In this document: piece by piece, positions 49,601-52,600 of the stretch
Position numbering within the stretch: the stretch's first letter is position 1
How the letters are laid out: the number at the start of each line of letters is the position of its first letter
Source of the DNA: a virus
Taxonomy: Duplodnaviria; Heunggongvirae; Uroviricota; Caudoviricetes
Reading direction: 5' to 3' (one strand)
Length of the DNA stretch: 64,000 nucleotides
IMG/VR virus record: IMGVR_UViG_648028025_000010
Position numbers: made by a program

Positions 49601-52600
49601 CTGCATCAGGGTATAAGGGGTTATGGCCACCGGACTACCAAACGGCTGCCAGCCCTCTTTCAGTTTGTGTGTCAGCTTTTCCGCAAGGTCTGACGGCGAC
49701 GCCGCCCTGACAACATCATAATGTTTAATCGACATCGAATTTCTCCCGTGTACAGGAACAGAGTTAAAAAGCCGGAACCGGAATCAAATTACAGGATGGC
49801 CATCTGCCAGTGGCTGGTCGTAAAAAAAAGGCCACGCCATGCGCAGCCGGAAATAAAGGGATAACGATGATAGTTTGAGAAAAACAGAAACAACACTTTT
49901 GCGGCAAAGCATGGTGCCGGGTGCCTCCCGGTGAATTCAGTATCAGCACCTGAATCCGCGATTATCCCATATACCTGGTTGCTGATCGCCCCTCCGCACA
50001 GGGGGATTCACCATGCAGTAGTATTTTTAATAAACAGCAAATAAAAAAATCAAGCATTATGCAGGCTGTTTCTTTTTATCACCGGCCACAGCAATACCAC
50101 AATGCCGCAGACCAGCACCCCATCCGCCAGCACCGACATGATTCTGCTGGTGAAATCCACCATCACCACCAGAAACAGCAGGAGTGCAGCCACAGCCAGG
50201 CGCAGTTTTACCGTCACTGGTGATTCTCCAGACGAAGACCCAGAACACCGGCAATCTCTTCCAGCACCTTGCGCTCTTCCGGCTCAATTTCGCCGTCTGC
50301 CTCCGCAATGGCCACCGCCACATCCAGCACATCTTCCGCTTCACGCGTATCGTGTTTCACATCTTCAATTTCACGCAATGCCGCTCGACGACCAATTTTA
50401 AAGTTCGTATCCAGCTGACCGATAATGGTTGCGCTAATCGCATTAATTTCTGACGTAAACGCGGACAACGCAGGCTGGTTACGCAAGATCTGCTCGATCT
50501 TCGCTTTCTCTGAAGCCTCACATTCACCATCTGCATAGGCCACCAGATAGGCAGCATTAATAACCGCCTGTGCCAGATCACGTTTCTCAAACTTTTTAAT
50601 TTCCACTGCCGCTCGGCGGGCTTTTTTACCAAAAATACCAAACATCGTGACGTTCCTTTGGGTGGGTGAGCCAACGCCCGGGAGCGATCTGCCCACAGAG
50701 AAAGTCACACTGACCACTCCGTAAGCTCACCCCCGAAAGGCTCTGTGGTTGATATGCGCCGGGCGTGGCGCGGATACAAAAAAGGCCGCCAATAGCGACC
50801 TCAGTTACGGGATTATTCTGGGGTTAAACGACTGTTACTCCCCCCAGACAAAATCATCACTTCCTGTTCGATGCGAGCCATAGTGAACCTCGTACTTATC
50901 TCCCATCTTTCTTGCTTCCGTTTCTGCGTCTTCCTCTGTCGCAAAAACCCCAACAAGATGCCAGGGCGAGCTTCTTACCACAGCCCAACCTTTAACCCAT
51001 CCTTTGTTGTCCTTATCTTCCATTAACACTTCAGAAACAAACATATTTATCTCCTTGTGGGTACCCAGAGATATTTTATGATTGCTCCCGGTCAGATCAA
51101 TAAAGTGGCTTCAATTTTGCCTTAATGATCAAATCAGGGTGATTGACGGAATCGTACACCACCTCAATATTTTCATCCGTGGCGTCGATAAGATATTCTT
51201 TTACATAAGGACCTGTTGATTTTCCATGAAATACATCTTCAACAAGTACACTCTCCCCCTGAACAACACGAAAACTAACTTCTGTTTCGAACGGACCAAT
51301 CGTCACCATCAGTTTTTTCACATAGCCTCCTGATAAGCACTCGATTTATTAGTTAATGGTGTAACGCAGATACAAAAAAAGGCCCGCAAAAGCGAGCCAA
51401 GTAAATAAATATGGCGCGTTGTACTGGATTCGAACCAGTGACCGATTGCTTAGAAGGCAATTGCTCTGTCCGACTGAGCTAACAACGCATGATGCTGATA
51501 ATGGACCGCCATCGGGAACTTGAACCCCGCACAGCCAGCTTCGAAGGCTGACGCTCTATCCCGATGAGCTAATGGCGGTATGTGATGGTGGCCCTTGCTG
51601 GATTTGAACCAGCGACCTGGCGATTATGAGTCGCTCGCTCTCACCACTGAGCTAAAGGGCCGGGCGCAGGATAATAACGGTACGTAACTAATTCTGCAAT
51701 ATCATCCGTTCTGACTGACTACATTCTGAACTTCCCTGACCGTCTGCTCAAAACGCCCGCTCTCCAGCTCAACGCCAATTGCACGACGCCCCAGCGCCAT
51801 TGCTGCTTTGACGCTACGGACATAAAAAAGCCAGCCACTGGGGGAGGCTGGCGAAACTCGTAGAGCAAAAGTGTTGTTACACTAACTTCGTCACAGGGTT
51901 ATCCTGCAATACTCAAAATACACAATATTTACAAAACTAATAGTATACAAGGCGATCTTTAAGATTTTGTTATTAATTGTGGTCGCACCTTCCTTTCTGT
52001 GTACTTTCCGTATAGCTCACAGGATTCTGGGTACAAAAAAACCCGCGCATCGGCGGGTTCTTAAATCTTATCAACGGTAGACATACAAAGCCCATCATTG
52101 GGAAAATCTTATCCATATTTTTTGAAAAATGCAAGCATCATGTCGTCATCTTCGGCGAAAACCATTTATCTTGTCACCTTTCTCAATTGTATCTCTGCAT
52201 ATGCTTCTTCCTGCCAGCACTTTGTAACCAGTTTATCAATGACATCTGCATATCCTTTGTACCACTGATAATCCGTCAGGTCTGGTACCAGCTTCTGGAC
52301 ATGAAGCCGCGCCAGTGTGGTTGGTAAACTGCTAAACCGGTTTCCATTGCAACGCCCACAAACCTTATAAACAGGCGTGCCATGAAGCCGGGTTCTTTTT
52401 TCATCCAGGACAATACCTTTACCCTTGCACCCTCTGCATGCTGTGCTGACTTCTCCCTTACCATGACAATGCTGACATAGTTCCTTCACCCACTCTTCCT
52501 TAATAACAGATTCCCCGCTTCTGGAGTGTTTCACCACCTCGCGCAATACATTATGAAATCCAGTACCAGCACAATGCTCACAGCGAGCCTTACTTGCCGC

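Follow-up and report, generated by a model that had tools for sequence, protein, structure and literature searches.

TciA/TciB and a separate two-gene cassette at the stx position of a non-Stx lambdoid prophage

The stx2AB and stx1AB operons of the Shiga toxin (Stx) phages 933W and H-19B lie in a slot with the tR' terminator, a trio of tRNA genes, and a further terminator upstream, and an STnc100 small RNA (sRNA) and the esterase gene nanS-p downstream. This site, downstream of the Q-antiterminated promoter PR', has been named the "moron insertion site" (Tree et al., 2014, PMC4104026). The site is occupied by stx2 in Sp5 and by different cargo in Sp3, 4, 9, 10, 11, 15, and 17, and after the cargo come sRNA genes and a conserved open reading frame (ORF); cargo other than stx at this slot in non-Stx lambdoid prophages is already published (PMC4104026). 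The subject here is the same slot in IMG/VR virus record IMGVR_UViG_648028025_000010 (Caudoviricetes), and in particular two overlapping genes within it, tciA and tciB, which encode a TerB-domain protein and a short DUF3927 peptide. Coordinates are positions in the 64,000-nt stretch analyzed ("the window"), and all elements of the slot are on its minus strand. E. coli O26:H11 11368 and several O145 and O26 genomes match the window DNA at 100% identity.

The tci names derive from an operon of phage P1, tciA-tciB-tciC, and were assigned by homology; behind them stands the plasmid ter cluster, whose link to phage inhibition and colicin resistance is the origin of the name. P1 (AF234172) likewise encodes a standalone TerB protein (~141 amino acids, aa), 41.5% identical to TciA here by tblastn (52.4% for the P1-named record OP279344), and directly 3' of it, again with overlapping start and stop, a DUF3927 peptide of ~54 aa (50% identity over the full alignment, 58% over the tblastn core). 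tRNA genes are adjacent there too, including one for tRNA-Ile2(CAT). P1 differs in its promoter, the operon there being early and under the C1-controlled ban promoter whereas the pair here would be late and Q-dependent, and in having a third peptide, TciC (35 aa, one hydrophobic helix). No TciC-like ORF is found here, where an STnc100 sRNA comes after tciB; since other non-P1 members lack TciC too, it is not defining for the pair.

In the reading we prefer, at a probability of roughly 0.55, this non-Stx lambdoid prophage, of enterohemorrhagic E. coli (EHEC) type, has a moron slot in its Q-dependent late operon, filled by two independent cassettes, one of which, tciAB, acts at the membrane for the phage.

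The stx position and its two cassettes

Comparison with 933W places the slot exactly. From 52060 down to 51365 the window is 94.7% identical to 933W, the aligned stretch there running from the tR' terminator (after PR'/qut), via the tRNA genes ileZ-argN-argO, up to the terminator before stx2A. Homology to both H-19B and 933W begins at a tR'-like hairpin (breakpoints 52059/52060), the 933W terminator being annotated at the aligned position, and homology to 933W restarts at 50034, inside the STnc100 sRNA just past stx2B. The 1,330 bp between these breakpoints (50035-51364) therefore stand in for the 1,371 bp that carry stx2AB in 933W, and this segment replaces stx relative to Stx1 phages in the same way. 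A sequence-only reading of this DNA had proposed that the genes here sit where Stx phages carry stx, in a cluster about the size of an stx operon, and on both counts the breakpoints agree with it. The resemblance is one of slot and flanks: the cargo is unrelated to the stx operons in sequence and function. By breakpoints against 933W, a Stx1 phage, and an O157 prophage, the segment is an insertion between conserved phage genes, flanked by terminators (51381-51398, 50782-50802, and 49830-49848), as is characteristic of a moron.

Between the tRNA trio and nanS-p are four co-directional genes, coding for proteins of 74 and 69 aa, a TerB protein of 143 aa, and a peptide of 55 aa, each with a Shine-Dalgarno sequence at normal spacing. 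These had been described correctly, as had every other detail that was checked, but the four do not form one cluster, as had been supposed: tciAB and its leader are shared without the small genes, the small pair is bounded by terminators, and the two segments differ widely in frequency. In JLK-2012, PPyecE_EH1910, and an O157:H7 prophage, the common segment (leader, TerB, DUF3927) extends only from ~50798 to the end of the peptide gene, homology to the first two stopping at 50798, and its immediate upstream neighbor there is a tRNA terminator or other cargo. Two copies of one terminator sequence (…GGCC-TTTTTTGTATC(T/C)GCG…), both recognized by a terminator scan and by alignment with each other, enclose the 74/69-aa genes. 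The left copy (51381-51398) follows the last tRNA-Arg gene; the right (50782-50802) ends the small-gene cassette and begins the tciAB module. In the O157 arrangement, which was also used in placing the left copy, the first terminator copy runs directly into the TerB leader. Together with the duplicated terminator, this indicates that the 74/69-aa pair is an inserted cassette.

The TerB/DUF3927 segment is found in 840 of 5,426 complete E. coli genomes (~15%), at 3,987 matching places (median six, and never more than 10, per matching genome). The small-gene segment is found in 110 of the same genomes, and all four genes together in 93. IMG/VR was also scanned with a TerB alignment; this returned only close relatives (at least 89% identity), and describes lambdoid contexts without giving co-occurrence statistics for distant lineages. 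The small pair is present at 13 of the 80 loci there with a close TerB relative. The small ORFs are conserved in related prophages.

The 74-aa gene (51097-51321; phrog_2571, E = 1.9e-26) has a GTG start with AGGAGG 5 nt upstream. Its product has no Pfam match, and a word-indexed search returned near-identical homologues only. The 69-aa gene (50835-51044; phrog_4280, E = 6e-41, full length) has AAGGAG 8 nt upstream, and homologues of its product in Salmonella and Xenorhabdus are 60-70% identical, with 28 invariant columns. More distant homologues of the 74-aa protein (34% identity) precede 69-aa homologues in a Xenorhabdus prophage (L095), just upstream of the holin gene, and on a further contig (L094), which makes the two a conserved gene pair. 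AlphaFold2 models the 69-aa protein with high confidence as a beta-beta-alpha-beta fold (predicted local distance difference test, pLDDT, 92), for which there was no significant structural match in PDB or BFVD; anti-CRISPR proteins were the top PDB matches, and were rejected (E ~1, probability 0.16). A PADLOC search with all four slot proteins gave no meaningful match. In both L094 and L095 there is an Acb2/Tad1-type anti-defense gene near the small-pair homologues, which with two loci only is a lead and not evidence.

On L094 (positions 1-6204; Logan contig SRR10254147_26) the small-pair homologues have a P1-type tciA/tciB 1.1 kb upstream of them. The gene order is SIR2_2, tciA, tciB, a P22-type antirepressor, the 74- and 69-aa homologues, a 71-aa membrane peptide, a Band_7 protein, and an Acb2/Tad1-hairpin protein. 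tciB has a TTG start there, with a 4-nt overlap, and was missed by gene callers.

TciA and TciB as a coupled pair

tciA (50214-50645), with AAGGAA 8 nt upstream, encodes a standalone TerB-domain protein of 143 aa. Residues 26-138 match Pfam TerB (PF05099) at 61 bits against a cut-off of 24.4 (E = 1.7e-16), and practically the whole protein matches phrog_632, "tellurite resistance" (E = 1.2e-68, positions 1-142 of 143). Its homologues are 141-149 aa long, so that the gene is not a fragment of a larger, disrupted one. Residues 15-137 also match the PDB TerB structure 2JXU (E = 4e-8). Two acidic motifs, D39-G40..E46 and D117-G118..E124, are invariant or nearly so across 11 phage and bacterial homologues; a pseudo-repeated DG....E pair of this kind is the proposed metal-binding site of the TerB family. 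An N-terminal MFG..KK motif is conserved as well. The AlphaFold2 prediction for the TerB part is a helical bundle of six helices (pLDDT block means of ~75-92 over residues 21-140, mostly above 80), with 2h5n as its top Foldseek match (probability 1.0, target TM-score 0.58, and a modest E-value of 0.016). NCBIfam gave sub-threshold matches only, among them one to DjlA (residues 112-165).

tciB (50050-50217) has a GTG start, with GGAG 8 nt upstream, that overlaps the TGA of tciA as GTGA. Its 55-aa product matches Pfam DUF3927 at 62 bits against a cut-off of 25 (E = 4e-17), and phrog_1470 ("TciB-like") over positions 1-54 of 54. It has two hydrophobic segments, at residues ~7-20 and ~30-45, with DFTSR between them, and is probably a two-helix membrane peptide, as had been proposed along with the overlap. 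The core motif VDF(T/A)S..S...DG is retained in relatives down to 34-40% identity. The family is small, with 62 cluster representatives in 1.84 billion proteins, nearly all of them standalone and 40-70 aa long. In some prophages (L025, L030, and L031, at ~3430-3600) three residues (VVM) are duplicated within the first hydrophobic helix of TciB, and some E. coli records (P0007, P0064) have frameshift-fused TerB-DUF3927 ORFs; together these show that the junction and the repetitive, GTG-rich codons of the helix are prone to indels. P0007, P0064, P0156, P0171, and P0198 were considered as genuine domain fusions and rejected as frameshifts or chimeric gene calls.

By alignment with a diverged prophage copy (L008), both genes are under purifying selection. 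The ratio of nonsynonymous to synonymous substitution rates (dN/dS) is 0.045 for TciA, with 50 nucleotide but six amino acid changes, and 0.20 for TciB, with 27 and eight in the aligned part. Over longer distances the peptide is at least as conserved as its partner: TciB and the Pollock peptide share 55% identity across their full alignment and 62% across a core segment, compared with 27-31% for the TerB counterparts.

The start of tciB overlaps or abuts the stop of tciA in every lineage examined, by different sequences: GTGA in lambdoid phages, TGATG in P1, TAAATG in Pollock, TAAGCCATG in the Erwinia jumbo phage ChrisDB, and TTGA in L094. TciB comes directly after TerB at all 79 evaluable IMG/VR loci, and also in P1, Pollock, and ChrisDB. 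The coupled pair extends to virulent phages: it is in the N4-like phage Pollock (in the early/middle region), in related Salmonella and Shigella N4-like phages, and in Erwinia jumbo phages. In lambdoid phages it is always between Q and the lysis genes, and co-directional with them. At one such locus (L075), Q is followed in turn by a 99-aa ORF, tciA, tciB, and the genes for holin, lysozyme, and Rz; only a few hundred bp separate the pair from the holin gene, which is of P21 type, and there are no tRNA or nanS-p genes between. The sequence-only reading could not name the module, but a name exists, TciA/TciB (P1 tciABC; PHROG 632 and 1470), and GenBank uses these labels in JLK-2012, 434, PPyecE_EH1910, P1, and Pollock.

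In several unrelated phages the pair is beside or within a tRNA cluster: Ile2/Arg/Arg here (51412-51661), Asn/Thr/Gly in JLK-2012 (L001, 5970-6203), Asn/Thr upstream and Ile2(CAT) 3 nt downstream of the tci genes in P1 (L009, 1616-3276), and the middle of a tRNA array in ChrisDB (L011, 976-3367). Functional linkage and a shared insertion hot spot are alternative explanations. As to other neighbors, Pfam scans of the proteins encoded next to TciB in phage 434, Pollock, ChrisDB, and L094 gave no match; in 434 these include putative membrane proteins of 247 and 62 aa on either side of TciB.

Flanks and transcription of the slot

Upstream of the slot is a Q-family late antiterminator gene (52166-52960; Pfam Antiterm, E = 2.5e-52, plus a DnaJ-type zinc finger), which RefSeq starts at 52918 (250 aa) under the name "antitermination protein". 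About 110 nt past its stop is the tR'-like hairpin (52030-52058), read from the sequence as CCCGC..GCGGG followed by T7. A second terminator-like hairpin, GCCAGCC..GGCTGGC followed by T6 (51824-51852), corresponds in the alignment to the second of the terminators that 933W has ahead of its tRNA genes. The tRNA trio itself (51412-51661; ARAGORN, Rfam tRNA) is homologous to ileZ-argN-argO of Stx2 phages, with 94.7% identity to 933W, and consists by ARAGORN of Met/Ile2(CAT) at 51586-51661, Arg(TCG) at 51502-51578, and Arg(TCT) at 51412-51488. Between the right terminator copy and tciA is a conserved leader of ~135 nt (50646-50781).

Downstream, 8 nt past the tciB stop, begins an sRNA of the STnc100/PasD prophage family (49873-50042; Rfam RF02076, 102.4 bits against a gathering score of 47, E = 1.5e-22), a shorter match than that of the 933W copy (207 bits). 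In 933W this family likewise follows stx2B, beside the anti-sRNA AsxR; no convergent anti-sRNA of the AsxR/AgvB type was detected here by Rfam scan. STnc100 is missing from L075, P1, and L094, and so travels with the nanS-p flank and not with tciAB. A terminator found by scan (49830-49848) lies ahead of nanS-p, whose product is a NanS-p type sialate O-acetylesterase (47885-49735; Pfam DUF1737, SASA, DUF6645) and which forms the downstream flank of the slot.

Two other features lie nearby. Between the second hairpin and the tRNAs, at 51702-51815 (minus strand), is the remnant of a DNA methyltransferase C-terminus, called a pseudogene by RefSeq; the related prophages DS566, OkiPb01714, and PPyecE_EH1910 have an intact methyltransferase gene (~1,060 bp) between Q and the tRNAs, so that this prophage has lost the gene through deletion. 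The prophage also has, a few kb ahead of Q at ~54757-55696 (L003, 12858-13797), genes for a RelE/ParE-family toxin and a helix-turn-helix antitoxin-like protein, and the type I toxin gene hokD.

No sigma-70-like site turned up ahead of either cassette when the coding strand was scanned for the consensus, although weak or non-sigma-70 promoters could escape such a scan. The tciA leader was also considered as a riboswitch or attenuator; it matches no Rfam family, its folding z-score is only -1.9, and the idea was rejected. PR' was not located with confidence, and what was placed is the tR'-like hairpin and the homology boundary. With terminators upstream and no sigma-70-like site, expression is most simply explained by Q-dependent read-through. 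The earlier placement of these genes in the Q-dependent late operon is upheld by the replacement of stx2AB, the coding-strand terminators, the lack of a sigma-70-like site, and the gene order of L075.

Possible roles and comparison with other TerB systems

If tciAB is a phage-serving membrane system, it might work as follows. The pair would be transcribed mainly during lytic growth, when Q-modified RNA polymerase reads through the intrinsic terminators, and translational coupling would give co-synthesis of TciA and TciB. TciB may form a hairpin in the inner membrane, its two ends cytoplasmic, and serve as membrane partner to the TerB domain of TciA, which would lie in the cytoplasm and probably binds cations; for other TerB domains that role is apparently filled by TerC, by the transmembrane helix of DjlA, or by the membrane components of Bunzi and Dionysus. 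The pair would then act at the cytoplasmic membrane of the infected cell to the benefit of the phage, and not as a suicide module. Candidate roles are stabilizing the envelope or ion homeostasis, or excluding a secondary attack, whether by superinfecting phage, colicins, or membrane-targeting host defenses. Carriage by virulent phages, the failure to find a promoter of its own, and the lack of a PADLOC match together favor a lytic function serving the phage. The place of the pair in the C1-controlled ban operon of P1 also speaks for a benefit to the phage.

Several points weigh against this. Gene order is all that suggests contact between TciA and TciB. Phage 434 has a TciB homologue (L002, 3822-5054; 60% identity) with no TerB gene at all, so TciB is not strictly dependent on TerB. 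An AlphaFold2 model of the P0007 fusion, used as a stand-in for a TciA-TciB complex, rendered the membrane part as one low-confidence helix and carried no docking information. P1 tciABC is non-essential for plaque formation in a CRISPR interference screen, and in one subgroup of P1-like phage-plasmids about half of the members no longer have the operon. The consensus scan may have passed over a weak promoter in the tciA leader, and the six or so matching places per genome in EHEC lysogens could also mean a benefit to the lysogen. No functional study of or experiment on TciA, TciB, or DUF3927 was found in the literature.

A benefit to the lysogen is the basis of the first alternative, which takes up the stress or abortive-infection module suggested by the sequence-only reading: anti-phage defense, superinfection exclusion, or abortive infection by the prophage, with TerB sensing membrane perturbation by an incoming phage and the peptide as effector. 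TerB domains occur in the validated defense systems Bunzi, Shango, and Dionysus; in Bunzi and Dionysus they are combined with membrane proteins, in Dionysus with a membrane pore-former. The association of the plasmid ter cluster with phage inhibition and colicin resistance, the placement of tciAB in a prophage cargo slot, its retention at about six places per EHEC genome, and the proximity of SIR2 and Band_7 genes to the pair in L094 all fit as well. None of the partner genes of the three systems is present, however: there is no helicase/ATPase beside tciAB, as in Shango, and no DinA or four-helix pore-former DinC, as in Dionysus. No PADLOC model matched at a meaningful score (the top match was PDC-S48, E = 0.0056, 13.8 bits, with none to Bunzi or Shango; Dionysus is newer than the PADLOC version used and was judged by gene content only). 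The upstream terminators and the lack of a promoter-like site on the coding strand do not suit expression in a lysogen, and the virulent N4-like and jumbo phages that carry the coupled pair have no lysogen to protect. We regard lysogen defense as rather unlikely.

A more specific proposal is that TciA/TciB is a minimal two-part lytic membrane device, common to lambdoid, P1-like, N4-like, and jumbo phages, that neutralizes membrane-acting or TerB-based defenses or seals the cell against superinfection and colicins. In such a device the peptide, with its conserved intramembrane Asp, could be the active membrane element and the TerB domain a cation-sensing regulator, and the embedding in tRNA clusters might reflect a shared "host-independence" cassette. 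In this detailed form it is speculative, and we consider it doubtful.

Counter-defense as such, with a TerB homologue and a membrane peptide as decoy or antagonist of host TerB-based surveillance or of other membrane-acting defenses, would account for the pair in virulent and jumbo phages, jumbo phages being the targets of Dionysus, itself a TerB system. Acb2/Tad1-type anti-defense genes are in the same accessory regions of L094 and L095. The case is purely circumstantial, however, and TciA has no detectable similarity to the defense TerB proteins beyond the shared domain; we think it improbable. To about the same degree we doubt that the pair modulates lysis timing, with the peptide as a holin- or antiholin-like element tuned by TerB. 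TciB resembles class II holins in its size and its predicted topology of two helices, and in lambdoid phages its gene is always between Q and the holin gene, directly upstream of the P21-type holin in L075; but it has no Pfam holin match, and the pair is in the early ban operon in P1 and early/middle in Pollock, far from the lysis genes. Lysogenic conversion to tellurite or oxidative-stress resistance, suggested by homology to TerB and the database name "tellurite resistance TerB family protein", is very unlikely, since terC, terD, and terE are not adjacent, similarity to bona fide TerB is distant (E = 4e-8), and a phage-genome paper notes a lone terB without the other genes needed for tellurite resistance.

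As to what the locus adds, the observation was correct and is ordinary, and its interpretation overstated the novelty: the site is a known cargo site, and the genes are a named, widely annotated, and very common phage module. By itself the finding reveals nothing unexpected. Its value is mainly corrective, in that the stx slot of non-Stx lambdoid prophages is usually occupied by a named gene pair and not by cargo unique to one prophage. tciAB is among the commoner cargos of EHEC prophages, and is conserved as a coupled unit in virulent phages too; for a pair so common and so conserved, a functional assignment would annotate thousands of genes together.

Among described TerB proteins, that of the terZABCDE cluster (PDB 2JXU) shares with TciA the domain family, the two DG..E motifs, and the all-helical fold, at a distant relationship. 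The ter cluster differs in the membrane partner, which is the multi-pass TerC there and putatively a 55-aa peptide for TciA, and no terC, terD, or terE is found beside tciA, whose neighbors are tRNA genes, the two small ORFs, the DUF3927 gene, and nanS-p. A ter cluster in miniature does occur in a phage: Vibrio phage vB_VpaP-MS02 (L012, 1-2426; ~77 kb) has TerD, a hypothetical protein, TerC, and TerB in a row. The small ORF after TerB there is not a membrane peptide; TerC and TerD adjoin TerB instead.

DjlA, a membrane-anchored co-chaperone of DnaK, consists in part of a transmembrane helix and a TerB-like domain. It resembles the proposed arrangement in that this domain is anchored to the inner membrane on the cytoplasmic side, and the weak NCBIfam match noted above is to its residues 112-165; TciA differs in lacking a J-domain, and any tether would be a separate peptide and not a fused transmembrane helix. 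Bunzi, Shango, and Dionysus, the last of which targets jumbo phages, likewise combine a TerB-type domain with a membrane component, for which membrane surveillance has been proposed; unlike them, tciAB is encoded by phages, virulent ones included. The function of TciA/TciB could thus help to clarify what TerB domains do at membranes in the ter operon, in DjlA, and in several defense systems, a question easily approached with tciAB because the system is small and cloneable.

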